The position numbers and the translations under genes were made by a program. A DNA stretch of 47,745 nt from an uncultured Candidatus Peribacteria bacterium. Lineage in GTDB: Bacteria; Patescibacteriota; Gracilibacteria; UBA4473. The stretch is taken from NCBI GenBank assembly GCA_964468965.1, contig CAYXXA010000002.1, positions 1 through 47,745 on the forward strand, given 5' to 3'. The notes under the pieces were generated by a model that was not told where the DNA came from, made no database searches, and saw only the letters and a list, made by a program, of their open reading frames with translations. Shown here piece by piece: positions 12,346-47,310 of the stretch (positions are counted from its first letter, which is position 1; every line of letters starts with the position of its first letter).

Positions 12346-13812
12346 ATGAAAACAATTCCACTCGGTCTCACCTTTGATGATGTTCTCATGGTACCTCAGT
12401 ACTCTCAAATATTACCGAAAGAGGTAAGCCTAAAAACGCATTTTACTCGAAATATTAAGCTCAATATTCCATTGGTTTCTGCTGCGATGGACACCGTAAC
12501 GGAAGAAAAAATGGCAATTATGATGGCGCTTCATGGGGGAATTGGAGTGATTCATAAAAACTGTGATCCTGATACTCAGGCGGCTATGGTAGCAAAAGTA
12601 AAACGGTTTGAAAATGGATTTATCCGAGAACCTATGGTTCTATCGCCAACAGATAAAATTGCCGATGCGATTGTTATTAAGCAAGAACACGGGTTTAAAG
12701 CTATTCCGGTGACCTCAGATGGAACACTTGAGGGGAAAGTGGTCGGACTGCTTACTCGAAATGATTACCTCAAAAATAAACATGACGATTGTCTTGTTGG
12801 CGATCGAATGACGCCTTTTGAAGAACTATTGATTGCACGAGCCCCTATTGATCTTAGTACGGCTAATGACGTACTAGAAGAGTCTCGACATTCAAAATTA
12901 TTGATTTTAAATAAAGATGATACGCTTCATGCCCTTGTTACTCGTCGAGATATTGAGAAAAATGAAAATTTCCCCAACTCGGTAAAAGATAAAGGAAAAC
13001 GTTTGGTGGTAGCGGCAGCCGTTGGACCAGCACATAATATGGAAGAACGGGTTAAAAAACTGATTGATGCTCGAGTGGATGTTCTTGTCGTTGACACCGC
13101 ACACGGTCACTCAAAGGGTGTAATTAATACCGTGAAGTATATCAAGAAAAATTATCCAAAGACCGATGTACTGGCTGGAAACATTGCTAGTCCTCAGGCG
13201 GCAGAGGCTTTAATTAAAGCTGGCGCCGATGGAATTAAGGTCGGAATTGGACCTGGGTCTATCTGTACAACACGAATTATCGCGGGAGTAGGCGTCCCAC
13301 AATTTACGGCTATTCAGAATGTAGCAGCGGTTGCTAAACGACATAATATTCCAGTGGTGGCAGATGGGGGAATCAAATATTCTGGCGATGTGGCAAAGGC
13401 TTTGGCGATTGGGGCAAGTACGGTAATGATCGGTTCGCTCTTGGCTGGTACAGAAGAATCTCCGGGTGAAATTATCTATTCGGAAGGACAGACTTTCAAA
13501 TATTATCGTGGGATGGGGTCTATTGCCGCAATGACAAAAGGTGGCAAAGAACGATATGCACAGTCAAATGTTGCAGATGATAAGCTTGTTCCAGAAGGCA
13601 TTGAGGGAAAAATTCTACTCAAAGGTCCAGCCACTAATGAAATATTTCAGCTTTGTGGAGGACTAAGAAGCTCAATGGGATACTCTGGAGCGAAAAATTT
13701 AGCAACGTTTCAAGAGGTTGTTGAATTTGTTCAGATTACCTCTGCTGGTTTACGAGAATCGCATCCACATGATGTTGGTATTCTGAAAGATGCTCCAAAT
13801 TACAGAGGATAA
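12346..13812 (+). CDS. guaB: IMP dehydrogenase
   Basis: [14 protein letters not shown], a CBS-domain insert, the catalytic loop [11 protein letters not shown], and GGIKYSGD. Confidence 0.95.
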
Positions 13813-13940
13813 ATCATGAATTACCAGTTCAAAAATACTACAACGAACCTCATTTCTGAACTTACTTCTTTATAAATTACGCTACAATCTGCCAAATACT
13901 CAGTAATAGGGAGATACTCGTTTTTATAATCACAAGACTC

Positions 13941-16493
13941 TTAAGCCTTCATTTTTATCTGATCTTCGTCTTTTTCCTCCGCTGCTTCATAAATCAAAGA
14001 GATGGAAGAAACCAAATCACCTTTTGATTTCATGAGAATCACACCTTGAGTTGCTCGTCCTGCGGTTTTAATTCCATCAATAGGCGTCCGAATTGTCTGC
14101 CCATTTTTAGTAACGATCAAAAGATCGCCTTTGACATCTGGGTTAATCACCCGTGCTCCAGCAACTTTCCCCGTCTTCTTCGTGATATTAGCTACTTTAA
14201 CACCCGTTCCACCTCGTGTTTGTGTCCGGTAAAGTTTTACCTTCGACATTTTTCCAAGTCCATTTTCCATAACCGTCAAAAGTCGAGCATCCTCATCCTT
14301 TAGAATGTCCATTTGTACAACCTGATCATCCCCCTTAAGACGAATTGCTCGAACTCCCGCTGCAGCTCGTCCCATTGGTCGTACATTTTCTTCGTTAAAT
14401 CGAATTGATTTTCCATCATGAGTAACGACAAATATCTCATCTTCTCCTGATGACATTCTCGCCCACTGAAGTTTTTCACCATTTTTAACCCCACAAGCAA
14501 TCAATCCTGACCGCCGTATATTTTTAAACAAATCTAGATGAGATTTTTTGATCGTTCCTCCTGTTGTACACATAACGATATATTTTCCATCAGAACGGCT
14601 AAGATTTAAAATTTCAGTTACTTTTTCATCTTTTTGTAACTGTAGTAGGTTTACGATTGGCGTTCCTTTCGCAATTCGAGATCCTTCTGGAATCTCGTAC
14701 ATCGGAAGAGCGAATACCCGTCCAAAACTCGTAAAGAATAATAAGTCATTATGGTTTGTTCCATAAATAGACTTTGCAATAATATCTTCGTCTTTTGTCT
14801 TAGCACCAACAACACCTTTCCCCCCTCGCTTCTGAGCTCGGAACATGCTTGGCTTCATTCGTTTAATATAGTTTTCCTGTGTCAAAACGGTTAACATCTC
14901 TTCATCGGGAATCGTATCTTTCGCACTAAACTTTCCAAGTCCATGTGGGTGAACTTTTGTCTTTCGTTCGTCTCCAAATTTTTCAACCGCTTCCCTCATC
15001 GTTTCTTCTATAATATCTGACTGTTTATCTCGTGAAGCAATAATTGATTTTAGCTCATCGATTAGTTTTAGTTTTTCAGCCAATTCATCTTCTATTTTTT
15101 GTCGTTCAAGTCCCGCCAGTGTCTGAAGACGCATCTCAAGAATCGCTTTCGTCTGCTTGTCGGAAAGTCCAAATTGTTTAATCAAGGCTTCGGCTGCAAT
15201 TTCTTTGGTCGCTGAGGCTCGAATAACCTCAATAACTTTATCAATATTATCCAGAGCAATTTTCAGTCCTTCTAAAATATGAGCTCTTGCTTCCGCCACT
15301 TTTAATTCAAATTTTGTTTTTCGAACAACTACCTCAAATCGATGTTTTAGAAAGTATTCTAAAACTTCTTTAAGGTTTAGTAACTTCGGATTTATCCCAT
15401 CAACGAGGGCAATCATGTTGAGATTAAAATTCTTCTGTAGTAAGGTCTGTTTAAAGAGCTGATTCAGTATTTTCTTTGGAAAAGCATCTCGTTTCAACTC
15501 AATCACCACTCGCATCCCCTCTCGACTGGACTCATCTCTAAGATCCGTAATCCCAACAATTTTTTTATTTCGAACTAGATCTGCAATTTTGGAAACAAGG
15601 TCTGCTTTGTTTACCTGGTAGGGAATTTCTGTAATAATAATAGCCGTTTTTCCACCTTTCATCTCCTCCATACTCACTTTTGCTCGCATCACAATACCAC
15701 CACGTCCAGTGTGATACATTTCTTTTACCGCTCCTCCATCATAGATTTCTCCAGCGGTTGGGAAATCCGGTCCTTTTATAAAAGTCAATAAATCATCAAT
15801 AGTTGCGTCTGGATTCCGAAGGAGATGAATCGTAGCGTTGATAACCTCTCTTATATTGTGAGGAGGAATATTCGTTGCCATTCCCACCGCAATCCCCATT
15901 GTTCCATTTAAAAGAAGTTGTGGTACAACAGTTGGAAGTACACTTGGCTCTTTAGCTGTTGCATCATAATTATCAACAAAATCAACTGTGTCTTTTTCAA
16001 TGTCCTTCAACATTAAATCTGATATTCGTGTCATTTTCGCTTCGGTATAACGCATGGCAGCTGCGTTATCTCCATCAATAGACCCAAAGTTCCCCTGTCC
16101 CAATACTAGTGGATATCGAAGTGAGAAATCCTGTGCCATTCGCACCATTGAGTCATACACAGCTGTATCCCCATGTGGATGATATTTTCCCAAAACAGCC
16201 CCAACAACGGTGGCTGACTTACGAAATTTAGCACTCGCTCGAAGACCATTTTCATGCATAGCGTATAAAATACGACGATGTACCGGCTTTAGTCCATCCC
16301 TCACGTCAGGCAAAGCCCGTGACACAATAACCGACATCGCATAGCTTAGATATGAGTTTTCAATCTCAGGAACAAGGTCTTGAGAAAAATACCCTTCTCC
16401 TTCGGGATGAAAAAAAGTTGAAGTTCCTCCTTCCTCTGGAAGTTCCTCTTCCTGATTTTTATCGTTATCTGAATGCGATTTGTCGTCCGTCAT
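13941..16493 (-). CDS. gyrA: DNA gyrase subunit A
   Basis: [29 protein letters not shown], the catalytic-Tyr region AAMRYTE, and a C-terminal beta-pinwheel repeat region. I chose the ATG at 16493 rather than the TTG at 16517. Confidence 0.95.
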
Positions 16494-29347: not shown

Positions 29348-29578
29348 TCAACGCCCAAATAATGGACCAAAAAAGGAAATAAGCAATGGCTGTAATCCCC
29401 CCATTGCCCACATGAAGGATAGAATTGAAAGTCCAAGTCCAAAGAGTTTTACAAAAGTGTAAGTCCCACCTTGTAGAAATAGTTTTTCGGCAAAGTCAAT
29501 CTCTCCCGTATACTCTACAATATTCCTGGCATAAACAATCATAGCAATCCCAATCGGAATCAAAATCCAAGCTAACAT
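29348..29578 (-). CDS. Hypothetical small membrane protein (76 aa, 2-3 TM segments)
   Basis: Hydrophobic segments MLAWILIPIGIAMIVY and LFGLGLSILSFMWAMGGL. It is divergent from the pilin-like genes. Confidence 0.4.
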   Translation of the reverse strand: MLAWILIPIGIAMIVYARNIVEYTGEIDFAEKLFLQGGTYTFVKLFGLGLSILSFMWAMGGLQPLLISFFGPLFGR

Positions 29579-29687
29579 GATAATACTTAATAAATCGAAA
29601 AGAGCTAAACGCCAACAGATTCTAAAAACAAAAATACTTTTGTCAAAAATAATTGCGGAAAGTTTCTTTTTTCGCTATAATAAGGGA

Positions 29688-30698
29688 ATGGTGAAATATA
29701 TACTAGCCCTTCTTATCCTTTCTGGAAGTATTATCACAGAAACTTCCTTTGCCGATGATGCTTCGGGGAGTTATGACGATATAATGCCAAACTGGGAAAT
29801 AGGACAAACAACATCCAATTCAACCACACCAAAAAACAATACTAAAACAAGTACCTCCTCAACAAAGAGCAGAAAAACTCTCAAACTTCCAGATATAAAG
29901 AACTACGATCACGCTATTAAAAATAATCGCATCATAAAAACTATCGGTGATGGACAAGGACGCGGTGGTATTAAGTATGCCTTTAGAAATTTAGTAGGGC
30001 CAGACAGTGCTATAATCCCTGTCATTAACTATATTATGGCTGCCATTGCCCTTATCTGGCTCAGTATTCTTGGTGCTAAGTTTATATTTTCTCGAGGGGA
30101 AGAGGAAAACTTATCAAAGTATAAACAACAATTTGGATGGATTATTCTAGGACTACTCATTATCTCCATCGCTGAATATGTGGCATTCAATGTCTTTGAC
30201 CCCGTTTCAACTGGGGCTTTGGATACCAATGATGGCGTTAATCAGTTTGTTGAGATTATCCGGAAGATTATTACCTTCTTAAAATATCTCGTTGGAGGGG
30301 TTGCCCTTCTCGCTGGAGTACGGTCTGGGTTTGCCCTCATTGTTGGTGGAGGTGAAGATGACGTCATTCAAAAAGAAAAAGAGTTTGTAAAAATATTCCT
30401 TTTTGCCATTGCTCTAATTATCATGGCTGAATCACTTGAGCGATGGATTGATCTCAGTGCCGGTGGTGTTGGTATTCAGGCCGAAGGTCTAGTTATCGAA
30501 GCTGTAGGAATTATAAACTTTATTCTCACTTTTATCGCTGGAGCAGCTCTCTTTATGTTAGTCCTTTCAAGTCTTTACTACATTATTAGTTTTGGAGATG
30601 AAGAGATAACTGGACGTGCCAAAAAAATGATTATCGCTAGCATTGTAGGACTTATTATTGCCTATTCAGCTTATACTATCGTTCGATTTCTTGTTTAA
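29688..30698 (+). CDS. Secreted membrane protein with three tandem VirB2/TrbC-type (T4SS pilin-like) modules
   Basis: Signal peptide MVKYILALLILSGSIITETSFA. Three TM-loop-TM modules have acidic loops: FSRGEEENLSKYKQ, VGGGEDDVIQKEKE and ISFGDEEITGRAKKMIIASIVGLIIAYSAYTIVRF. I preferred the ATG at 29688 over 29577, which would overlap the divergent gene. Confidence 0.55.
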   Translation: MVKYILALLILSGSIITETSFADDASGSYDDIMPNWEIGQTTSNSTTPKNNTKTSTSSTKSRKTLKLPDIKNYDHAIKNNRIIKTIGDGQGRGGIKYAFRNLVGPDSAIIPVINYIMAAIALIWLSILGAKFIFSRGEEENLSKYKQQFGWIILGLLIISIAEYVAFNVFDPVSTGALDTNDGVNQFVEIIRKIITFLKYLVGGVALLAGVRSGFALIVGGGEDDVIQKEKEFVKIFLFAIALIIMAESLERWIDLSAGGVGIQAEGLVIEAVGIINFILTFIAGAALFMLVLSSLYYIISFGDEEITGRAKKMIIASIVGLIIAYSAYTIVRFLV

Positions 30699-30703
30699 AT
30701 TAT

Positions 30704-31618
30704 ATGTCAAAAATATTTCTCAGCTTCGTTATTTCTATTATGAGTATCAGCTTTGTCTGCGAAACAAGTTTTGCCGTTGTCGATTCGCGAAGTGTCTTTA
30801 GTGGTAATCGAGAGCTTCTTGGAGAACAATTAGATATCAAAGATTACAGTAACATTAGCATTGACGGTCGATCCTGTCAGAATCGTGAAATCCGTTGTAT
30901 TATAGAAAGTATCATTGAGTACCTCAAAAAGTTACTGCTTCCTATTGCTATCGTTCTTTTAATGTGGTCTGGAATCTATCTTCTCTTAGTTCGAACCGAT
31001 GAAGAAGCCTTTAAAAAAAGAAAAAACGAAGTCTTTGGAATCTTTGCTGGATTTATGATCATTCTCATATCGGCAAGCCTCATTGACAATGTTTTCTTTG
31101 GAACACAAGGAGAGATCCTTCAAGGAGCAGATACTTCATGGTTTGCCCAATCAGCACTTATTCAGATCAATGGGTTGGTAAATTTTTTACTAACTTTTGT
31201 TGTCCCTGTCGGCGTTCTTGTTTTAATTGTCAGTGCTTTCCAGCTCATCATTGGTGGTGGTGATGATGAACAAATGAGTAAAGCTAAAAAGAAAATTATA
31301 TATGTCATTATCGGAATTGCCGTTATCCTTCTAACCCAGTCTATTGTTGGTGCACTGACCGGAGGGGAAGAAATAAAACCTATCAATGCAAAACCTTACC
31401 TTATCATTCTTGTCAGCTGGATAAACTGGATTCTTGGATTTATTGGAGTATTAGGTGTCTTAGCTATCGTCTGGGCTGGAATTTCTATGATCGCCCACTT
31501 TGGTGATGAAGAACGAGTAGAAAGTGCCAAGAATATTATCAAATTTGTTGCTATTGGACTTATTATTGCCTTCTCCTCTTGGACTATTATTCGGTTTTTT
31601 CTTACAGCAGGAAACTAA
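30704..31618 (+). CDS. Paralogous secreted membrane protein with three tandem VirB2/TrbC-type pilin-like modules
   Basis: Signal peptide MSKIFLSFVISIMSISFVCETSFA. Module loops are LVRTDEEAFKKRKN, IGGGDDEQMSKAKKKIIYVIIGIAV and AHFGDEERVESAKNIIKFVAIGLIIAFSSWTIIRF. It has the same architecture as the upstream gene. Confidence 0.55.
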   Translation: MSKIFLSFVISIMSISFVCETSFAVVDSRSVFSGNRELLGEQLDIKDYSNISIDGRSCQNREIRCIIESIIEYLKKLLLPIAIVLLMWSGIYLLLVRTDEEAFKKRKNEVFGIFAGFMIILISASLIDNVFFGTQGEILQGADTSWFAQSALIQINGLVNFLLTFVVPVGVLVLIVSAFQLIIGGGDDEQMSKAKKKIIYVIIGIAVILLTQSIVGALTGGEEIKPINAKPYLIILVSWINWILGFIGVLGVLAIVWAGISMIAHFGDEERVESAKNIIKFVAIGLIIAFSSWTIIRFFLTAGN

Positions 31619-33194: not shown

Positions 33195-34154
33195 TTATAC
33201 AGTTTCTTTTTCATCAGCACTTTGCGTTACCGCAATAATAGAGGATTCCAACTCAATAAGTGTTTCCATGAGAGCTTTTTGTACCTGTTTAACCTTTTTT
33301 CGAATTGGCCGTTGGGTAGATTCGTTTATATAAAGTCCTCGATCAAACTCCACCTGAATGGTATATATTTTTTTTCCATTGAGTAGCTTTCGAAGCTTTT
33401 CGTTTTTTTGCGTGTTCCCAAAGGTACGAATAATATTCCCACCATAAAACAAGTGGTTTACTTTAACATCTTCCCGTTCAAATTTTAGTTTTCGAGCCAG
33501 TGTTTCCTGAAAAATTTCCATTAGATAATCAGGAGCGGTTCCAAAACATCCATTTTCTACTTCTTCATCTGGGGCATTGGAAATAATTACTTTGGGCATC
33601 TGAAAAAGCCCAACTCGCTTACGATCCTTTGATTTTGTCGGACCAAGAATAAGGTTTCCCGTATCATGAACATCAACTAGAAGAATGGGACGATCTTTAT
33701 TTTCCACTTTTTTAATCGTTCGTTCAATTGTTTTAAAAATACTTTTGTAATAAGGGTGATAGGATAGTTTAAGGATTTTATTGAGCCAGAAACTATGAAA
33801 CCAAGAGGTTGTTAGCCGTTTTTCAAACTTTTCCGAGAAAATACAGTTACCACCAAAGTCCTTAAACCGGATGAGATCAGGGGAATTTTTAGCTCGGTTT
33901 GGGTCACCAATAAGTCGTCCATACTGTGGAATAACCTTTTGATCCGTTGGAACGTCTTCTATCAAATATTTTGTTCCGTAATCAGAGAAATTTAATAACA
34001 GTCGGGGTGAGGTTTGGTAATAAGGAGAAAGCTTGGGAAAGATCGAAAGTGGAATTTTAAAACTTCCGTGAGTAGCGGTTACAATAATATTTTTAGGAAA
34101 ATGTTTCTTTTTCCAGATAAGTTTTTTGAGTTTATTAAATAGATTAAATTTCAT
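33195..34154 (-). CDS. N-formylglutamate amidohydrolase (FGase) family-like hydrolase
   Basis: The pattern THGSFKIP ... SDYGT ... GDPNR ... ILLVDVHDTG ... FYGGN resembles the FGase family. Assigned by eye only. Confidence 0.5.
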   Translation of the reverse strand: MKFNLFNKLKKLIWKKKHFPKNIIVTATHGSFKIPLSIFPKLSPYYQTSPRLLLNFSDYGTKYLIEDVPTDQKVIPQYGRLIGDPNRAKNSPDLIRFKDFGGNCIFSEKFEKRLTTSWFHSFWLNKILKLSYHPYYKSIFKTIERTIKKVENKDRPILLVDVHDTGNLILGPTKSKDRKRVGLFQMPKVIISNAPDEEVENGCFGTAPDYLMEIFQETLARKLKFEREDVKVNHLFYGGNIIRTFGNTQKNEKLRKLLNGKKIYTIQVEFDRGLYINESTQRPIRKKVKQVQKALMETLIELESSIIAVTQSADEKETV

Positions 34155-34702
34155 TACTTTAGGTCTTCACGAAGACATTCATACCTTATAGAATTATGAT
34201 AAACACCATTTTTGAGGTAGTGTTTTTTGAGTAAGCCAATCTTACGAAATCCGACCTTTTGGAGCAACTTTTCTGATCCAATATTTCCTTCAAAAAATCC
34301 TGCAAATATTTTTCGTAAACGTTTTTCAAAAAACCCAAACTGACAAATTCTTCTAAGCGCTTCAGTACCAAAACCTTTCCCCTGAGCTGTTGGACTAAGC
34401 CAAAAACTAATAAATGCAGAATCCTTTCGAGCATCTTGCTGAACTTCTTGAAAATTTCGAATAGTGATTCGACCGATAAGAGTCTTATTTTCAAAAATAC
34501 CAAAATTAAGATCGTTCGGGTCTCGTGTTTGTAAAAGCTTTTGCCGGGCTTCTTGTAAATCTTTCGGTGGATTCCATGTCATAAAATCCGCCAGTTCTGG
34601 GTACTGCTGAATAATAGTGAAAAGATCCGCAATATCCGATTGATTTAAGATTCGGTAGGTTAGTCGGTCGGAGTGAAGTTCTATTTTTTCCATATCCTTC
34701 AT
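34154..34702 (-). CDS. GNAT-family N-acetyltransferase (RimJ/RimL-like)
   Basis: The LTYRILNQSD start and the acetyl-CoA motif QGKGFGTEALRRICQFGF. Its stop overlaps the next gene's start (TAATG). Confidence 0.8.
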   Translation of the reverse strand: MKDMEKIELHSDRLTYRILNQSDIADLFTIIQQYPELADFMTWNPPKDLQEARQKLLQTRDPNDLNFGIFENKTLIGRITIRNFQEVQQDARKDSAFISFWLSPTAQGKGFGTEALRRICQFGFFEKRLRKIFAGFFEGNIGSEKLLQKVGFRKIGLLKKHYLKNGVYHNSIRYECLREDLK

Positions 34703-34870
34703 AGTTTAATCGAAAAAAATTTATTATCACGAATAATACTAAAAAAGATCCTGGTAAATCAAGAAATATATTCTAAATAAGTCTTGAAAAGACAGCCTAA
34801 AAAAATTTGCATTTGTTTTTCATTTTTTTAATATCATTTGGCTTTTTCCTCAAAAAAAGCGATAGAAGTC

Positions 34871-34947
34871 GCCACCTTAGCTCAGCTGGCTAGAGCAGTG
34901 GATTTGTAACCCGCAGGTCGTCGGTTCGATTCCGACAGGTGGCTCCA
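34871..34947 (+). tRNA. tRNA-Thr (anticodon UGU), CCA encoded
   Basis: Cloverleaf: acceptor GCCACCT/AGGTGGC, D-arm GCTC..GAGC, anticodon loop TTTGTAA, T-arm GTCGG-TTCGATT-CCGAC. Confidence 0.9.
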
Positions 34948-34987
34948 GAAAAAATCAGTATTTCTTAAGGAAGTAGTGGTTTTTTTG

Positions 34988-35320
34988 CTAGGAAGAAAGA
35001 CTAACACTTCCCGCTTCAAAGGGAAATTTTTGAACTCTTATTTCCCATTTTTTTATATCAGGAAAGGTTTTTTTGAGGGATTGCCCAAGTTTCGCGTGGA
35101 AGTGTTCCAGTAGACAAAAAGAGGTTTCGGCTGGAAACTGCTGGACGAACTGATAGATCTGAAAGTAATCAATAGTGTCTTTGATATCATCCGATTGTTC
35201 GGCTTTTTGAGTATCAAACTTAAATGTTAGTGAAACGAGAATTTCCTGTTTTGTTGCACGCTCTTCGTGGGGAACCCCAAGGAAAACTTGAACGGGAATG
35301 TCATGGATTTTAAACTTCAT
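34988..35320 (-). CDS. folB: Dihydroneopterin aldolase
   Basis: MKFKIHDIPVQVFLGVPHEERATKQEILVSLTF...SDDIKDTIDYFQIY...LLEHFHAKL matches the FolB pattern. The ATG at 35320 overlaps the recJ stop (ATGA). Confidence 0.75.
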   Translation of the reverse strand: MKFKIHDIPVQVFLGVPHEERATKQEILVSLTFKFDTQKAEQSDDIKDTIDYFQIYQFVQQFPAETSFCLLEHFHAKLGQSLKKTFPDIKKWEIRVQKFPFEAGSVSLSS

Positions 35321-37005
35321 CAGTTTAAGCGTACTCGAATATCTATCAATTTCAATTGAAGCCGTTTTTGTCCCTGCCAAAAATTTTCAGAAAGGTTGAA
35401 ACTCACATCATAGTAATTTCCAATCTTTAACTTCTGAGCATACTTACCAATAAAAAAGCCAACTAATTCAAAGGATTTCCTTTCACTCGTTACGGTTAAC
35501 TTGAGGTGATCATTTTCTTTACCGAGTGTTTTTACATTCACTAACTTAACCTTCTTCAATACAAAGTTTGGATTGGGGTTTCCCATACCAAAAGGACCAA
35601 GAAGATTTAAAAAATCCGTTAGTTCAAAGTTGATAAGTTCGGGAGAAAGATAGGCTTCAACAGGGATTAAAATCGTTTTTGGTTCGACTTTATCATAGTA
35701 GTCTTGAAGCTGTTTTTTTATTATGGGAAGGTTTTTCTTTTTGGCCTGAAATCCTCCAGCACCTCTGTGTCCACCAAATCCTTCAAAAAGTTTAACATCA
35801 CAGGCTTTCATTCCATCAATAATAGAAAACCCGTCAGGAGCTCGGGCACTAAAATTAACCATTCCATTTTTCTGTTCAGCACCAGCAAAAATAGGCTGAT
35901 TTAGCTTTTCCGATAATGCCGATCCCATAAGCCCCAGAATACCGATTGTCCAGTCCTTGTCATGAATAAATTGACAAGAAACATTTTTTTCAATCTTCGG
36001 TTGTGCTTGGTCGATGTGTTTTTTCGTCAGTGTACGACGTTCATTGTTTAGCTTTTCCAAGTAAGTGAGACGTTCGTAATTTCGACTTGGATTTCCAAGA
36101 AACAGTTCAGAAGCCTTTAAAACATCTCCGAGTCTTGAGGCCGCATTGATCTTTGGGGCAATATAAAACCCCACTGTTTCCGCATCAATATTACTGGGAT
36201 CAATACCATTTCGTTCGAGTAGTTTAGCCAGTCCAGACCAACTGGTTTCTTTTATCTTTTGAAGTCCAAAATGTGTTATGATCCGTGTTTCTCCCGTTAA
36301 CGGCATACAATCGCCAATCAGACCGATAGCGGCAATCTCTAGATAAGGGGTTAGAAAATCACTTAATTCGTTTGGATTGTTAATTTGTTCTTGGGCGAGG
36401 GCGGTAATAATCTTAAAAGCAATGCCTGCTCCAGAAAGTACCGTTTCAGGGTAATCACAGTGGTTATTGTGAGGGTTAAGCACGGAGAGAGCCTGGTTTG
36501 GGAAATTCTCTGGTTCTGGGTGATGGTGATCGGAAATGATAACATCCATCCCAAGTGAAACAGCATGATCAACCTGAGCTTTATCATTGATTCCACAGTC
36601 ACAAGAAATTATCAGGCTAACCTCTTTGGTTGCGATTTCGTCGAGAATATAGGTTTTAAGCCCATGCCCATCCGTATTTCGTTCGGGGATTCTATAAGAA
36701 ACTTTGGCACCAAGTTTTCGCAATCCATCAACCAGTATTACCGTAGAAGTCACGCCATCAGCATCAAAATCGCCATAAACCATTATCTTTTCCTCATTCT
36801 CGATAGCGGCCAAAATACGTTTTACCGCTTTATCCATAGAGTGCATGAGATAGGGGTCATGCAATTTTGAGAGTTTTGGATTAAGAAAGTCACTGATTTG
36901 TTCGTGAGTTTCAAGCTTTCGATTTTTAAGTAAAAGAGCCATAAGATCCTCAGTATTTTTAACTAATGGGGCCTTTTTCCACGCTCTTCCTGAAAAAGTT
37001 TTCAT
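35320..37005 (-). CDS. recJ: Single-stranded-DNA-specific exonuclease RecJ
   Basis: DHH-family motifs YGDFDADGVTS, DCG, ISDHH, and DHHA1 GGHRGAGG. Confidence 0.9.
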   Translation of the reverse strand: MKTFSGRAWKKAPLVKNTEDLMALLLKNRKLETHEQISDFLNPKLSKLHDPYLMHSMDKAVKRILAAIENEEKIMVYGDFDADGVTSTVILVDGLRKLGAKVSYRIPERNTDGHGLKTYILDEIATKEVSLIISCDCGINDKAQVDHAVSLGMDVIISDHHHPEPENFPNQALSVLNPHNNHCDYPETVLSGAGIAFKIITALAQEQINNPNELSDFLTPYLEIAAIGLIGDCMPLTGETRIITHFGLQKIKETSWSGLAKLLERNGIDPSNIDAETVGFYIAPKINAASRLGDVLKASELFLGNPSRNYERLTYLEKLNNERRTLTKKHIDQAQPKIEKNVSCQFIHDKDWTIGILGLMGSALSEKLNQPIFAGAEQKNGMVNFSARAPDGFSIIDGMKACDVKLFEGFGGHRGAGGFQAKKKNLPIIKKQLQDYYDKVEPKTILIPVEAYLSPELINFELTDFLNLLGPFGMGNPNPNFVLKKVKLVNVKTLGKENDHLKLTVTSERKSFELVGFFIGKYAQKLKIGNYYDVSFNLSENFWQGQKRLQLKLIDIRVRLN

Positions 37006-37153
37006 AGGCTGAGTTTAGGGTTTTCCGTCAAAGAACTCAAAGGTTTTAGCCCGGTTTTATATACTAGTTTTTTGGATATCAGTGAACAATCTTTTATCAA
37101 CGTAAGAAACAGATTTTCAATTTACTTTTTTCTTTTAAAATGGCATATTACTG

Positions 37154-38239
37154 ATGATGCATAATACCTTTGGTTCTTTTTTTCGAATTACAAGTGCGGG
37201 AGAGAGTCATGGACAGGCTAATGTCGTGATCATTGATAATTGTCCGCCAAATATTGAATTGACCGAATCAGATATTCAGACAGATTTGGACCGACGAAAA
37301 CCAGGGCAATCAGAGATTACCACACCTCGAAAAGAAAGTGATAAGTGTGAGATTTTATCAGGGGTTTTCGAAGGAAAGACAACGGGAACAGCCTTAGCGG
37401 TGATTGTCCGAAATGAAAATCAGCGATCGCAAGATTATGGAAACATTAAAGATATTTTTCGCCCCTCTCATGCGGATTTTGGATATTTTTCTAAATACGG
37501 AATACGTGATTATCGAGGTGGCGGTCGGAGTTCCGCTCGTGAGACAATTGCTCGTGTGATAGGAGGTGCTGTGGCTAAGAAAGTTTTAAAACAAAAATAC
37601 CCAAACCTTGAAATTTATGGATTTACTCGGTCGGTGGGAAAAGATTTTTTTGAAACCGTCGACAAAGACTATATTGAAGAAAACCCTTTAAGAATGGCTT
37701 CTAAAGAAGATTTTGCAAATATATTGCAAAAGGTGGAATCAGCTCGAGACAGTGGTGATTCTCTCGGTGGAACGATTGAAGTTCGAGTGGAAAACCCTCC
37801 TGTGGGACTGGGAATGCCGGTTTTTGGAAAGTTGGAAGCTGAACTTGCAAAAGCAATGATGTCGGTTCCTGCGGTAAAGGGGTTTGAAGTTGGAGAAGGC
37901 TTTGGACTTTGCGAAAAACTTGGTAGCGAGGCGAATGACAGCTTTGTTGCAAATAGTTCGCAAAATGAAATTCATACCAAACGAAATGCCAATGGTGGTA
38001 TTTTGGGCGGAATTTCCACGGGAGATGATATTTGGTTTCGTGTTGGGATTAAGCCGACTTCTTCAATCTCACTTCCTCAAAAATCAGTCAATAAAAAAGG
38101 GGAATCTGTTGATTTAGTCGTTACGGGACGACATGACCCGATTTTATTACCACGAGCAATCCCCATCTTGGAAGCGATGACAGCACTCGTTTTACTCGAT
38201 CACGTGATGATGGATCAGGGGCAAAATAAATTATTTTAG
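37154..38239 (+). CDS. aroC: Chorismate synthase
   Basis: FRITSAGESHG, RPGQSE, RGGGRSSARET and GRHDP signature motifs. Confidence 0.95.
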   Translation: MMHNTFGSFFRITSAGESHGQANVVIIDNCPPNIELTESDIQTDLDRRKPGQSEITTPRKESDKCEILSGVFEGKTTGTALAVIVRNENQRSQDYGNIKDIFRPSHADFGYFSKYGIRDYRGGGRSSARETIARVIGGAVAKKVLKQKYPNLEIYGFTRSVGKDFFETVDKDYIEENPLRMASKEDFANILQKVESARDSGDSLGGTIEVRVENPPVGLGMPVFGKLEAELAKAMMSVPAVKGFEVGEGFGLCEKLGSEANDSFVANSSQNEIHTKRNANGGILGGISTGDDIWFRVGIKPTSSISLPQKSVNKKGESVDLVVTGRHDPILLPRAIPILEAMTALVLLDHVMMDQGQNKLF

Positions 38240-38248
38240 AACAAGAAA

Positions 38249-39676
38249 ATGCAAAAAATGTACCTCACGACTCCGATCTATTACGTAAACGATATTCCGC
38301 ATATTGGGCACGCCTATAACATTCTAGCCACTGATACACTCGCTCGATACTGGAGAGAGAAACTCGGACGAGAAAATGTTTTTTTTCTCACGGGAACCGA
38401 TGAAAATTCTCAAAAGACCGTTGATGCGGCTGCCGATCGGGAACAAGAAATTTATGAGTACCTAGAAGAAATGTCGGCTAATTGGAAAAATACTTGGGAA
38501 AAAATAGGAATTGACTTTGATGATTTTATTCGGACGACGGAGGAACGACATATCAAAACGGTACATGAAATTTTCAATACTATCTATAATAAAGGGGATA
38601 TCTATAAAGGCGAATATAAAGGGCTTTATTGTACGGGCTGTGAAACTTTTCTTAAAGAAGCAGATCTTGACGAAAATGGATACTGCCCAGATCATAAAAA
38701 AGCCCCTCAAACCCTGGCTGAAGAAAATTATTTTTTTCGACTTTCCGCTTATGAAGATCAACTATTAGAACTTTTTGCCAACGATTTACTCATGCCTGAA
38801 AAACGAAGGAATGAAATGGTCAGCTTTATTAAAGGTGGGCTGGAGGATATTTCTATTTCACGAGAAAGTGCGGAATTTGGAATTGAACTCCCTATGGATA
38901 AATCTCATAAAGTGTATGTATGGTTTGACGCTCTGATTAATTATTACTCAGCAATTAAGCAGGATGGACGAGCCGATTTTTGGAACGTTGTAACCCATAT
39001 TATCGGAAAGGATATCACAAAATTTCATACCGTTATCTGGCCTGCGATGCTTTTAGCTGCAGATATAAAACCACCAAAATCGGTTTTTGCCCACGGTTTT
39101 TTCACGATTGACGGAACAAAGATGTCAAAAAGTTTAGGCAATGTTGTTAACCCGCTCGATCTTTCTAAAAAATTTGGGAACGATGCGCTTCGAGCTGGAT
39201 TACTTTCGAGTTTTGAGTTTGGAAACGATGGAGACTTTGCGGTACGAAACTTCGAAGAATTTTATCGAACGAAGCTTGCTGGTGGCGTTGGGAACCTCTT
39301 TAACCGAGTAATAATTTTAGTTCATAAGTTTCTAAATGGAGTAAAGCCCGTTAACAATGAATCATTAGCCACAGACCATGAACTAAAAAAATTTAATAAA
39401 CTATTAGAAGATAAGAAGTTGAAGGCCTCGATTGATTTATTTTTTGGTGTTGTTGATTCCGCAAACGAGTTGATGAACGAAACGGAAGTTTGGAAAATGG
39501 CAAAATATGATACCGATAAGGCTAGTGAAGTTTTTGCACAATTATTGCAAAAACTCGAAATACTGACAGAAATGGCAAAAGTCGTTTTACCAGAAACCCA
39601 CCCAAAAATGAAAAAAATGCTTGGAGAGGATACAACACTAGGGCAAGCAGAAATTTTGTTTGCCCGAATAGAGTAG
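38249..39676 (+). CDS. metG: Methionyl-tRNA synthetase (short form without a C-terminal dimerisation domain)
   Basis: HIGH motif PHIGHAY, zinc knuckle CTGCETF...CPDH, and KMSKS. Confidence 0.95.
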   Translation: MQKMYLTTPIYYVNDIPHIGHAYNILATDTLARYWREKLGRENVFFLTGTDENSQKTVDAAADREQEIYEYLEEMSANWKNTWEKIGIDFDDFIRTTEERHIKTVHEIFNTIYNKGDIYKGEYKGLYCTGCETFLKEADLDENGYCPDHKKAPQTLAEENYFFRLSAYEDQLLELFANDLLMPEKRRNEMVSFIKGGLEDISISRESAEFGIELPMDKSHKVYVWFDALINYYSAIKQDGRADFWNVVTHIIGKDITKFHTVIWPAMLLAADIKPPKSVFAHGFFTIDGTKMSKSLGNVVNPLDLSKKFGNDALRAGLLSSFEFGNDGDFAVRNFEEFYRTKLAGGVGNLFNRVIILVHKFLNGVKPVNNESLATDHELKKFNKLLEDKKLKASIDLFFGVVDSANELMNETEVWKMAKYDTDKASEVFAQLLQKLEILTEMAKVVLPETHPKMKKMLGEDTTLGQAEILFARIE

Positions 39677-39803
39677 GTTTTAATGATCGTATCCCGTATT
39701 TTGTAGAGTAATTCATAAAAAACAAGCTCAGAAATGAGGCTTCTTTGAGTATTTTTTATAATGAAACACTCTTTTCTCTTCGAGAAGGTCTGTTGAAAAA
39801 AGC

Positions 39804-39940
39804 TAAAAAATATAGTTTTGAATTTTTACTTAATTTATGGTATAATGATCCGATAATAAAAAAGTAACATGAAAGTTTTATCAAATCAATCTCGGGTGTC
39901 TTTTTCTCAAGACAATGAAAAACTAGGGAAATTTTTGTTT
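39804..39940 (+). repeat. Copy 1 of a 137-bp direct repeat (promoter + 5' UTR + first 24 codons)
   Basis: It matches 40486-40622 at a constant offset of 682 bp with 2 mismatches (39840 G/A, 39937 G/A). I compared the two copies base by base. Confidence 0.9.
39818..39846 (+). promoter_or_regulatory. Sigma-70-type promoter (TTGAAT-17-TATAAT with an upstream TG)
   Basis: -35 TTGAAT at 39818-39823, an exact 17-nt spacer, -10 TATAAT at 39841-39846 preceded by TGG. It lies 22 nt upstream of the ATG. Confidence 0.5.
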
Positions 39941-40423
39941 AAACATGAAACAGTTGACTGTTCTCCTGATCAAACTCAAGATACAGAAAAAGCACGCGAA
40001 ATAACTAATTCAAGAGAGTTTTTAGATACATATAACACTTTTACGATTCTAGAACTCTTATCTGAAGAGAAAAATGATGCAACCTTTGACGAAAACGGAG
40101 AAAGTGGTGAGTTATCTTTTAGTATTCATAAAAATATCACAAATGAGGCAGACGGTCGCAAGAAAACAACCTTTACCCTTGAGAATATAAAAGGTTATAA
40201 ATATGTTACCGTAAATGGTGTAAAGAAAAAAGCGATGTTAAACTTTCATACGCTTGTTGCTTCCTCTATTACTACCCCTATAAATGATGGGACGAATGAT
40301 TTTGATAGACTATTTACAGAATATAAATTCGAGAAACCTGAAGATCAAGAATCCCTTATTTTTCTACTTGGATTTGCCTCTCTGCTAAAAAAAGAGTCTA
40401 ATCAGGAGTCTAGTGGTGAGTAA
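39869..40423 (+). CDS. Hypothetical acidic protein (184 aa) with a shared 24-aa N-terminal module
   Basis: The ORF has its own consensus promoter. N-terminus MKVLSNQSRVSFSQDNEKLGKFLF is identical to the downstream paralogue. No family recognised. Confidence 0.5.
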   Translation: MKVLSNQSRVSFSQDNEKLGKFLFKHETVDCSPDQTQDTEKAREITNSREFLDTYNTFTILELLSEEKNDATFDENGESGELSFSIHKNITNEADGRKKTTFTLENIKGYKYVTVNGVKKKAMLNFHTLVASSITTPINDGTNDFDRLFTEYKFEKPEDQESLIFLLGFASLLKKESNQESSGE

Positions 40424-40485
40424 TTAGTTTTTTCCAAACTTATTCTAACTCCTTTTTTTGTTCGGTTATATTCTAGAATTTATAA

Positions 40486-40622
40486 TAAAAAATATAGTTT
40501 TGAATTTTTACTTAATTTATGATATAATGATCCGATAATAAAAAAGTAACATGAAAGTTTTATCAAATCAATCTCGGGTGTCTTTTTCTCAAGACAATGA
40601 AAAACTAGGGAAATTTTTATTT
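40486..40622 (+). repeat. Copy 2 of the 137-bp direct repeat
   Basis: See copy 1. It is identical except at 40522 and 40619. Confidence 0.9.
40500..40528 (+). promoter_or_regulatory. Sigma-70-type promoter (TTGAAT-17-TATAAT), duplicate copy
   Basis: Same hexamers and spacing as the promoter at 39818-39846. The extended -10 reads TGATATAAT. Confidence 0.5.
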
Positions 40623-41096
40623 GGTTTAAGTAGAATCCCTGAGTGTGATTCAGGGGAAAACAAAGGTAGTGAAAAATGCGAAAAGAATGAGGAAAAACAG
40701 ACAATCCGTGAATTAGGTTCAAAATTACAAGAAGAACTGAGTACCAAGATGGCAGAGAAAACTCTTGAAAAAATTCGAGAACCAAATAGTAGATACTTTG
40801 AAGAAATGCCTCATGAAGAATTTGTGAATCTTGCTAACTATGTGGGTGAAAAAATAGGAGCTAGGGGACAAATTCAATTTATAACCATAAACAACGATAG
40901 GGGGAAAACAATGAATATAACTTTTAAAAGTGGTGGACACCTAGAAATAAATTTGGATGAGGGAACTGTTTTTGAGAGTGGCGTTGCTGATATAATGGAT
41001 ACTCGATTTGCACCAGATATTACACTTCCATTTAACTCACCAATCGTTCAAAAAGTTATAACAGAGGGGGGGCAACTTTCTGATTATACTGAATAG
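40551..41096 (+). CDS. Hypothetical acidic protein (181 aa) with a shared 24-aa N-terminal module
   Basis: The first 24 residues are identical to the 39869 gene. The remainder is unrelated by eye. A clean terminator follows. Confidence 0.5.
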   Translation: MKVLSNQSRVSFSQDNEKLGKFLFGLSRIPECDSGENKGSEKCEKNEEKQTIRELGSKLQEELSTKMAEKTLEKIREPNSRYFEEMPHEEFVNLANYVGEKIGARGQIQFITINNDRGKTMNITFKSGGHLEINLDEGTVFESGVADIMDTRFAPDITLPFNSPIVQKVITEGGQLSDYTE

Positions 41097-41131
41097 AACT
41101 TTAGAATACTAAAGCAACAAGGCATACTTTT

Positions 41132-41158
41132 AAAAAACCACCTTTATGGTGGTTTTTT
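41132..41158 (+). terminator. Rho-independent terminator
   Basis: AAAAAACCACC-TTTA-TGGTGGTTTTTT: a GC-containing stem, a 4-nt loop and a T-tract, 36 nt after the stop at 41096. Confidence 0.7.
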
Positions 41159-41173
41159 GCTATTTTCGGTAAA

Positions 41174-41250
41174 TGGTGGGCATGCCAAGACTTGAACTTG
41201 GGACCTCGTCCTTATCAGAGACGCGCTCTAACCAGCTGAGCTACACGCCC
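41174..41250 (-). tRNA. tRNA-Ile (anticodon GAU), CCA encoded
   Basis: Cloverleaf: acceptor GGGCGTG/CATGCCC, anticodon stem CGTCT/GGACG, loop CTGATAA, T-arm CCAAG-TTCAAGT-CTTGG. Confidence 0.9.
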
Positions 41251-45250: not shown

Positions 45251-46117
45251 ATGAGCACTTCAGAAAAAAAGAAGCAAGAAGATATTTCTTTGACAACAAA
45301 GGAAACCGAAAAACGAGCTTCAGATGTATTGGACGACGATTCTTTGATTGAAGATGATGGAGATTTTTTTTGGGTTTTACAGCGGGTTATTTGGGGTATT
45401 CTGAAAGGAATTTTTACTTTAGCGATTATTATCTTTCTTATTTGGTTTATCTGGGGGGATTTTGGTACTACTTCTCCATTAAATAAAACTTCAGAAAAGG
45501 TATCGAAAGTTATTAAACATAAGAATATCGCTACGGTAGAACCGACAAATCAGGTCCCTGTTGTTTACGAGGGAGGTCAAAAGCTTTCATCTTCTTCTGA
45601 TATACAGTCTATGATTACGCGATCTTATAGACTGGCTAACGCAGAAATTAGGTCCAACTCAGGAATTTTATCAGAATCAGTATTGTGGCTTAAAAAGGCA
45701 AAATCAATAGGAGAAATTTCCCCAACTATTTTACGTATTCAATCACCTACAGTTCGAGCTAAAAAAATTGAAGAAATACTTGTCACGGCAGACTCAATTC
45801 TGAAAGAATCGACCGATTTAAAAAAAGTTTTACGTGCCCAAAGCCTTCAAATTCTTCAAAAAAAGAAAATCCTAGAATACGAAATAAAAGCTTTAGACGA
45901 TAAGATATTTGAAAAGATCCGCCGGTTTAGCCCAAATGACATTGATTTACTTCTTAATGAAAAAATAAAGAAGAAAAAGCTACTTATTGAGTACTCTGAA
46001 CAAGGTAAAATTAGAGAAACATTGTTCAAAAATATCGTAAACTTTGAAACCCTACTCAAACAAAAATGGATTCCATTAATTCGTCCTACCCATGTTAAAC
46101 CACCAAAGACTCCATAA
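45251..46117 (+). CDS. Hypothetical single-pass membrane protein with a Lys-rich helical C-terminal half
   Basis: TM segment ILKGIFTLAIIIFLIWFIWG. I preferred the ATG at 45251, downstream of a TATAAT at about 45238, over the track's TTG at 45203. Confidence 0.5.
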   Translation: MSTSEKKKQEDISLTTKETEKRASDVLDDDSLIEDDGDFFWVLQRVIWGILKGIFTLAIIIFLIWFIWGDFGTTSPLNKTSEKVSKVIKHKNIATVEPTNQVPVVYEGGQKLSSSSDIQSMITRSYRLANAEIRSNSGILSESVLWLKKAKSIGEISPTILRIQSPTVRAKKIEEILVTADSILKESTDLKKVLRAQSLQILQKKKILEYEIKALDDKIFEKIRRFSPNDIDLLLNEKIKKKKLLIEYSEQGKIRETLFKNIVNFETLLKQKWIPLIRPTHVKPPKTP

Positions 46118-46746: not shown

Positions 46747-47310
46747 ATGATGAAAAAATTACTAACACTAACATTTTTAGCGATACCAACGCTTACTTTT
46801 GCAGGAGGTGCTGGTACAGGTATCGATCTTAGCGATTATAATATTGTTGAACCAAGTTCTGCTGTAGAATCTTCAACGTCGGCGACAACAATACCGCAAG
46901 TGACACAACCAACGCGAAGAACAACGACAGTAAGAACTCGATCTACTCGACGAAACCGATCGGCTCGACGAGGTTATGGATTTCGATTAAGTCGAAAAAC
47001 CGGAACACGAGGAAAAACAACGACAACAAGACGTAGTCGATCTACTCGTGGAGCTAAAATTTACACACTAAATGGAGTAACGTATAACACCTATTGGGAA
47101 TGGATTCGTGCTTACCGAGCCGCTAACAATGACGATACTGGAATCACACGAATCACTACAAGTATTGTAAATTACGGAAATGCCTATGACTTAGCAAATG
47201 GACTTGAACCAATCGATCCAAAGGATAATACCTACCGAGGACTTACTCGAGAAGAAGAGCGACAGGCTGCTGCTCAACTAAAGTTGATGCGGCTTCGAGG
47301 GCTTCGATAG
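46747..47310 (+). CDS. Secreted protein with an extremely Arg/Thr-rich low-complexity region
   Basis: Signal peptide MMKKLLTLTFLAIPTLTFAGG, then TQPTRRTTTVRTRSTRRNRSARRGYGFRLSRKTGTRGKTTTTRRSRSTRGAK, then a ~90-aa globular-looking tail. Confidence 0.5.
   Translation: MMKKLLTLTFLAIPTLTFAGGAGTGIDLSDYNIVEPSSAVESSTSATTIPQVTQPTRRTTTVRTRSTRRNRSARRGYGFRLSRKTGTRGKTTTTRRSRSTRGAKIYTLNGVTYNTYWEWIRAYRAANNDDTGITRITTSIVNYGNAYDLANGLEPIDPKDNTYRGLTREEERQAAAQLKLMRLRGLR

Follow-up and report, generated by a model that had tools for sequence, protein, structure and literature searches.

The arrangement of one conserved gene head in front of unrelated coding bodies is already known from the Erp proteins of Borrelia, the Vsp/Vpma proteins of Mycoplasma, and chimeric genes. 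In Borrelia burgdorferi, the erp genes (OspE/F-related, located on cp32 prophages) carry a conserved promoter/operator (the ‘upstream homology box’) and N-terminal leader codons before open reading frames (ORFs) of independent origin, and often occur as tandem pairs that are co-expressed through the shared head (PMC10016077). The Mycoplasma loci vsp (M. bovis), vpma (M. agalactiae) and vlp (M. hyorhinis) consist of clustered genes with a near-identical 5' untranslated region (UTR) and N-terminal coding region, which are otherwise unrelated (PMC2268961). A minimal, two-member variant with a non-signal head is described here from an uncultured lineage, in a 47,745-nt contig of a Candidatus Peribacteria bacterium (GenBank assembly GCA_964468965.1, contig CAYXXA010000002.1), the whole of which is referred to below as the window. 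Two adjacent genes, ORFs A and B (the twins), both begin within a 137-bp repeated head that carries a promoter-like site, a short leader and the first 24 codons, and then continue into dissimilar bodies. The explanation favoured here, with modest confidence, is that a single, fairly recent copying or conversion event set one promoter/leader/start head before two unrelated, species-restricted genes.

The likeness to the Erp genes lies in a common promoter block before every member (65 nt with one difference in the twins), and is one of analogy, with no sequence homology. By contrast, the Erp head encodes a lipoprotein signal peptide with sorting residues and precedes many paralogous loci on prophage plasmids, whereas the twin head is hydrophilic, lacks a lipobox, and precedes just two chromosomal genes without phage or plasmid similarity. 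With the Mycoplasma families the twins share a constant 5' UTR and start, a divergent remainder, and a reduced-genome, host-dependent type of host. In vsp and vpma, however, a Xer-like tyrosine recombinase relocates a single promoter by inverting DNA at 5' UTR sites, and the proteins begin with a prolipoprotein signal that has an AAKC lipobox, whereas each twin has its own promoter, the copies lie in direct orientation with no recombinase gene within ~10 kb and no hypermutable homopolymer in the promoter, and the shared N-terminal module is not a signal peptide.

Three further systems invite comparison. The ‘orphan’ cassettes of polymorphic toxin, contact-dependent inhibition (CDI) and Rhs systems also switch abruptly from a constant stretch to unrelated sequence and use repeats as recombination handles, but what stays constant there is the final part of a large delivery domain, the C-terminal toxin is variable, and an immunity gene follows each cassette. 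In the twins, the constant part is a promoter and start, the proteins are ~180 aa long with no toxin, immunity or trafficking domain recognised, and a terminator and a tRNA gene, not an immunity gene, come after ORF B. Precursor arrays of ribosomally synthesized and post-translationally modified peptides (e.g. prochlorosin, Nif11/NHLP-type) combine a near-identical leader with a hypervariable core in tandem genes, the cores being tens of residues long and the modification and export enzymes adjacent; unlike these, the twin bodies have 157-160 residues, and the neighbours are metG, aroC, recJ, tkt and glmS. The last comparison, with chimeric genes formed by partial (5') duplication or promoter capture, extends to a promoter and first codons fused in frame to unrelated sequence, with sharp breakpoints and low divergence; these represent a mechanism, not a family, and as to the sources of the twin bodies, no similarity to anything was found in any frame.

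One head before two dissimilar bodies

The initial annotation of this DNA, made from the sequence alone, had reported a 137-bp direct repeat at an offset of 682 bp with two mismatches, one in the extended -10 element and one in a synonymous Leu codon, and an abrupt end of identity after codon 24. These observations are fully reproduced by a repeat finder (137 nt, 99% identity, start-to-start spacing 682) and by direct comparison, in which the copies agree at 135/137 bases (coordinates in Table 1). The mismatch between 39840 (G) and 40522 (A) is the ‘n’ of the TGn extended -10, and leaves TG and TATAAT intact in both copies, while that between 39937 (G) and 40619 (A) is the third base of codon 23 (TTG/TTA, Leu in both). 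Ungapped identity in 20-nt windows drops from 1.0 within the head to 0.2 in the first window beyond each edge (background 0.29), and the bases flanking the copies differ at either end (C/A before, A/G after). The head comprises 65 nt of non-coding and 72 nt of coding DNA, which are equally conserved, the upstream 65 nt differing at one base. It is by far the longest repeat of the contig, followed by tRNA arms (56 nt) and by a 48-nt repeat with 77% identity, and a 68-nt piece of it matches these two sites alone (0 expected, from 100 shuffles). Its longest homopolymers are A6 and T5. The end of a miniature inverted-repeat transposable element or of an insertion sequence was considered and rejected for the head, which has no terminal inverted repeats and no further copies in the contig.

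Table 1. Coordinates of the head copies, the two genes, and the associated signals in the window
Feature	Position	Strand	Evidence
Head copy 1: A/T-rich upstream tract, promoter-like site, leader, codons 1-24	39804..39940	+	repeat finding, window identity, base comparison
Promoter-like site, copy 1: -35 TTGAAT 39818-39823, 17-nt spacer, TG 39838-39839, -10 TATAAT 39841-39846	39818..39846	+	consensus match only
ORF A, 184 aa, acidic soluble orphan; residues 1-24 shared module, 25-184 unique	39869..40423	+	codon usage, open-frame chance
Head copy 2, 135/137 bases same as copy 1	40486..40622	+	repeat finding, window identity, base comparison
Promoter-like site, copy 2: TTGAAT-17-TGaTATAAT	40500..40528	+	promoter scan, consensus match
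ORF B, 181 aa, acidic soluble orphan; residues 1-24 shared module, 25-181 unique	40551..41096	+	codon usage, open-frame chance
A-run/hairpin/U-run past metG stop, probable weak metG terminator	39715..39759	+	fold -8.4 kcal/mol, z -1.0
Weak AU/GU-rich hairpin and U7 overlapping ORF A end, possible leaky terminator	40404..40460	+	fold -13.1 kcal/mol, z -0.5
Strong hairpin between A-run and U-run, probable terminator of B and, on the other strand, of tRNA-Ile	41131..41159	.	terminator scan; fold -15.5 kcal/mol, z -3.4
tRNA-Ile (GAT), right neighbour	41174..41250	-	tRNA finding

Both ORFs start at an ATG within the head, with an in-frame TAA 4 codons upstream, and end in TAA/TAG; in ORF A the next in-frame Met occurs only at residue 123. 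The chance of an open frame across 157-160 codons at 33-35% GC is 2e-6 for the A body and 1e-6 for the B body, and 200,000 shuffled bodies yielded 2 and 0 open frames, respectively. Codon-usage log-odds, trained on the contig's 24 long genes (for which native 160-codon windows score 0.31 +/- 0.08), amount to 0.27 bits/codon for the A body and 0.24 bits/codon for the B body in frame, and are negative in the other five frames. Together, the open frames and host-like codon usage suggest that ORFs A and B are very probably translated genes. The twin region has a GC content of 33-35%, compared to 39.6% for the contig's genes. Many Gracilibacteria read UGA as Gly (genetic code 25), but this code was rejected for the present contig because TGA serves as a stop (ending 6/36 long ORFs) and is absent in frame from conserved genes of 700-1000 codons; the organism uses the standard code.

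The two predicted proteins are hydrophilic and acidic (~21 kDa; isoelectric points (pI) 4.97 and 5.00), with a maximum 19-aa Kyte-Doolittle hydropathy of 0.5-0.6. Neither contains Trp, and both have a Cys 7-8 residues past the module (Cys31 in one, Cys32 in the other), a set of common properties that, along with length and pI, is suggestive but not significant. Sequence searches with A and B against Pfam, NCBIfam, PHROGs, PADLOC and PDB returned nothing above noise, the best family match being TCTP (E 0.016, under its cut-off) in a Lys/Glu-rich helix. Single-sequence AlphaFold2 models have low confidence (predicted local distance difference test (pLDDT) scores 38.6 and 39.3), and a Foldseek comparison of these models with the PDB, which is uninformative, gave no match at E<=0.001 (TM<=0.24).

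The initial annotation had found the bodies not alignable by eye beyond the module, and this is borne out by every comparison made. BLASTP aligns only residues 1-43 of A and B, 24 of which are the module, with nothing significant beyond. From residue 25 to the end, local (Smith-Waterman) and global alignment scores are no better than those of 1000 shuffles (z -0.9 to +0.9), hhalign gives the bodies a probability of 0.3%, and their in-register nucleotide identity of 0.28 is the same as at neighbouring offsets (676-689). By distance in amino-acid composition, A and B rank only at the 13th percentile among unrelated pairs. That the bodies are hidden paralogues was thus rejected, with alignments, hhalign, nucleotide identity and composition all at background.

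Residues 1-24 are exactly the same in A and B. The module is basic and hydrophilic (mean Kyte-Doolittle hydropathy -0.45) and has no h-region; K2 and R9 are followed by VSFSQDNEKLGKFLF, and no window reaches transmembrane or signal-like hydropathy. It contains no lipobox, twin-arginine or double-glycine motif, and the residues before Cys31/32 (TVDC, IPEC) are not of the lipobox type. On account of this hydrophilicity and the missing h-region and lipobox, Sec, Tat and lipoprotein signals were excluded, in line with the initial view that the module is hydrophilic and not a Sec signal. The predicted conformation of the module differs between the two low-confidence models (beta-hairpin in A, helix in B). 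Its sole codon change is synonymous, with 0 non-synonymous changes, a pattern with a neutral probability of ~0.24 and hence uninformative.

Further copies were sought at the protein and DNA levels. Word-indexed searches of A and of B against 5.8 billion cluster representatives returned only A and B, with the twin scored at E~2e-4 through the module alone, so any other module-bearing protein would have been seen. Likewise, phmmer, run exhaustively with A on 1.84 billion representatives, found only A and B, with B matching over residues 1-48; the negative over ~15 billion proteins rests on the word-indexed searches (A and B) and on phmmer (A only). For the module elsewhere in the window or in 40 related loci, tblastn gave nothing better than E 0.6, and back-translated module peptides had no match in viral and metagenome contig collections. 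A 27-nt promoter/leader piece also had no match in the viral and metagenome contigs, a weak negative given that the metagenome set lacks the source contig. In 10 related loci (~120 kb in total), there are no direct repeats >=50 nt within 4 kb. Among the sequences searched, the 137-bp block and the module are therefore represented by the two copies alone, and a larger cassette family headed by the module, whether of the polymorphic effector/immunity or leader/core kind that the initial annotation had envisaged, is not supported, there being no other members and no relevant neighbours. Overprinting on a decayed gene and foreign origin were also considered and rejected: searches with 39677-41173 by tblastx and blastn, covering the remaining window and every locus, gave nothing, and tblastn against phage and plasmid collections found nothing for the twin region.

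Expression signals and chromosomal setting

Both head copies contain TTGAAT-17-TATAAT with TG before the -10, a promoter that the initial annotation had already pointed out and that was recovered by a promoter scan. Such consensus matches are not rarer in the contig than in shuffles, so that promoter activity is inferred. The leader in each head is ~15 nt long, A-rich and without a Shine-Dalgarno sequence, as are the contig's genes generally with respect to the latter. A cis-regulatory RNA (riboswitch, leader or attenuator) was rejected for the head, which has no Rfam match at E<=1 and no stable RNA fold (fold z-scores +1.0 and -0.45). Several genes of the contig carry a recurrent ‘CCTAAAACTCA / AAAACYCA’-like motif 5-15 nt upstream of the ATG (e.g. 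the starts at 542, 25953, 31786, 37005 (-), 43257 (-) and others), which is possibly a lineage-specific initiation motif; the twins lack it.

Transcription of the pair was initially thought to end in one strong terminator. The strong terminator downstream of ORF B stands, and probably acts bidirectionally, ending both the ORF B transcript and the convergent tRNA-Ile transcript, but ORF A has its own weak hairpin and U7, which the terminator scan did not call. Termination of the pair thus probably involves one weak plus one strong terminator, and A and B may be partly co-transcribed through the leaky A hairpin. In a separate observation, the DNA after metG contains a 58-nt terminator-like element (39701-39756 (+)), consisting of an A-run, a hairpin around GAAAUGAGG and a U-run, which recurs at 13831-13887 (-) with 84% identity over 58 nt (blastn E 5e-8), between genes 12346-13812 (+) and 13941-16493 (-). 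This pair of intergenic sequences looks like a small repeated terminator-like element, to which the probable weak metG terminator (39715..39759) belongs.

The twins lie between metG and a tRNA-Ile gene, as the initial annotation stated. Upstream are recJ (-), aroC and metG, and downstream are tRNA-Ile(GAT), tkt and glmS, all (-). The tRNA-Ile gene has a near-consensus promoter-like site of its own (TTGACA-16-TACAAT, 41300-41273). The genes within ~10 kb are housekeeping genes, plus two type-IV-secretion-pilin-like genes 8-10 kb upstream; no recombinase, transposase, toxin, immunity, peptidase, transporter, modification, maturation or secretion gene was found near the twins over this distance. 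The two pilin-like genes (29577-30698 and 30704-31618 (+)) are adjacent, each with a type IV secretion pilin (TrbC/VirB2-like) domain at its end, and share a 48-nt repeat at 77% in their 3' ends (30648-30695 / 31556-31603). Near the right end of the contig, two ORFs (45251-46117 and 46747-47310 (+); 288 and 187 aa) have no Pfam match and may be further lineage-specific genes.

Relatives of MetG place the contig among Gracilibacteria/Peribacteria-type candidate-phyla-radiation bacteria. The closest contig (L041, from Logan SRR26701691; MetG 86% identical) is collinear with the window over 33246-39680, to 4 nt past the metG stop, beyond which it carries a DinG-like helicase gene on the other strand. 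In the next relative (L003; MetG 75% identical), recJ-aroC-metG is kept, and rpe follows 5 nt after metG. Neither relative has the twin genes, the head or tRNA-Ile at that place. Since collinearity ends at the metG stop and other genes follow in the relatives, the low-GC stretch that the twins occupy is species-specific and coincides exactly with a synteny breakpoint. In all the relatives examined, conservation of the recJ-aroC-metG block breaks off only a few bases from the metG stop (window 39680; L041 8640; L003 7425), and L041 has an nSTAND3-domain gene inserted between recJ and aroC.

Origin of the shared head

The sharp edges on both sides, the equal conservation of non-coding and coding DNA, and the unrelated bodies point most readily to a single, discrete act of copying, and are less easily reconciled with an ancient tandem duplication that has since decayed. 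In the proposed mechanism, the 137-bp head (an A/T-rich tract, extended -10 sigma-70-type promoter, ~15-nt leader, start codon and first 24 codons) would have been copied once within the small, low-GC, lineage-specific stretch between metG and tRNA-Ile, through partial duplication, one gene-conversion tract, or homology-anchored illegitimate recombination that stacked two alleles sharing the head, and would now drive two unrelated coding bodies of ~160 codons each. With identical transcription and translation-initiation signals predicted for the two genes, ~21-kDa acidic soluble proteins would be expected together, at similar rates, and ORF B may also be transcribed by read-through from the A promoter. 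As there is no Shine-Dalgarno sequence, initiation would rely on an unstructured A/U-rich start region that was copied as one piece, and the shared 24 residues would most simply be passengers of this initiation region, a peptide presumably with no function of its own. The sequence features thus support A and B as two co-regulated, independently initiated orphan genes, and we infer from the 1.5% divergence that the event was single and fairly recent, with promoters that would be active.

A comparison of assemblies bears on the age of the event. At least three contigs, from NCBI (47.7 kb), JGI (34.7 kb) and ENA (11.9 kb), share this tandem and its copy-specific bases; the ENA scaffold differs by one single-nucleotide polymorphism (SNP) inside metG, corresponding to 1 SNP in 6.4 kb between two strain assemblies. 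Set against this figure, the 1.5% divergence of the head copies indicates a copying event older than the sampled strains, with no homogenisation of the copies afterwards.

Several points weigh against the single-copying explanation. Two mismatches alone cannot separate recency from homogenisation, and with only two copies at hand, gene conversion and a single recent copy are indistinguishable. The lack of non-synonymous change in the module is also expected under selection on the peptide, while the Cys at C31/C32 and the near-equal length and pI could hint at a common design. As for the searches, B was run with the word-indexed tool only; the DNA-level search for copies covered, of this genome, the 47.7-kb contig, along with the related loci and the viral and metagenome collections; and the metagenome set gave no self-match, although the JGI contig Ga0226836_10000122 carries the block, so negatives from it are weak.

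The alternative that survives best, though we consider it unlikely, takes the 24-residue N-terminus to be a functional constant module (a non-Sec targeting, secretion, docking or processing tag) with payloads free to differ. Its identity would be kept by selection and/or gene conversion, giving an Erp/Vsp-like or effector-like ‘constant head, variable body’ pair, with A and B perhaps paralogues of great age, or else alleles that came to lie in tandem. The host clade has reduced genomes and is probably dependent on other cells, a setting where variable surface or effector proteins would be expected; the module without a non-synonymous difference, the Cys just past it, and the similar size and pI of the proteins are compatible with such a role. 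Selection on the peptide would, however, leave the equal conservation of 65 nt of non-coding DNA unexplained, and the hydrophilic module, without h-region, lipobox, twin-arginine or double-glycine motif, has just two members in ~15 billion proteins, no export, peptidase or recombinase gene nearby, and predicted conformations that disagree between the (low-confidence) models.

It is distinctly improbable that the direct repeats form a working recombination switch, in which RecA-mediated or site-specific exchange causes the A cassette to be deleted, released as a 682-bp circle or amplified, resulting in population heterogeneity in which protein, A or B, is made. The initial annotation had noted that the repeat could be a substrate for homologous deletion or amplification, and this holds in principle: the minimal processing segments of RecA are ~25-50 bp, so the identical runs of 96 and 36 nt within the head are long enough for homologous recombination, and the locus adjoins a tRNA gene at a rearrangement-prone point of the chromosome. 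Nevertheless, exchange between repeats in direct orientation would be an irreversible deletion, not a switch, each gene has its own promoter so that there is no silent cassette, and no recombinase gene lies within 10 kb. Ongoing rearrangement is also unsupported, since the three assemblies keep the full tandem undeleted with the same copy-specific mismatches, the 1.5% diverged copies being neither homogenised nor lost.

Comparably doubtful is a more elaborate proposal, that the 137-bp head is a portable ‘express-and-address’ module of this candidate-phyla-radiation lineage, combining a strong promoter with a hydrophilic non-Sec tag of a new kind that sends unrelated, rapidly invented proteins to a common destination (e.g. 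the cell surface or a host cell), the tag possibly being processed near Cys31/32 and the payloads captured by recombination. If true, the two genes would give an initial view of a variable, Erp/Vsp-like repertoire belonging to an uncultured episymbiont.

It is very improbable that one or both ORFs are not real genes and that the head is a duplicated intergenic promoter fragment; A and B have no homologues, their models score poorly by pLDDT, and their GC content is under the genome average, but open frames of this length have a chance of 1-2e-6 per body, and codon usage approaches that of native genes in the coding frame and in no other. An assembly artefact, which the initial annotation had kept in view and in which strain variants or two loci sharing the head were stitched in tandem by the assembler, is scarcely credible: the source is a metagenome-assembled genome and a repeat of 137 nt is near the largest k-mers of metagenome assemblers, yet the tandem recurs in NCBI, JGI and ENA contigs of differing length (one with the metG SNP), the sequence joining A end, 62-nt spacer and head 2 is unique and has to be present in reads, and the copies have copy-specific bases and in-frame fusions to long open reading frames.

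Significance for orphan genes in small genomes

The twins illustrate orphan-gene evolution neatly without constituting a system of a new kind, and nothing yet shows that their shared start exceeds a copied expression signal. If the head was simply copied, the locus would be a clean, datable case of a tiny-genome bacterium making a new expressed gene by copying a 137-bp head, an explanation that also allows for the head having been inherited by an unrelated open reading frame. Such a case would be relevant to how the many orphan genes of candidate-phyla-radiation genomes arose, and to what a genome lacking Shine-Dalgarno sequences needs as a minimal portable expression signal. If instead the N-terminus is a functional tag, the twins would point to a targeting signal not recognised before, and to an uncultured, probably host-dependent lineage with a variable repertoire of proteins. 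On either reading, the locus amounts to two natural reporter fusions, with one head on two bodies.

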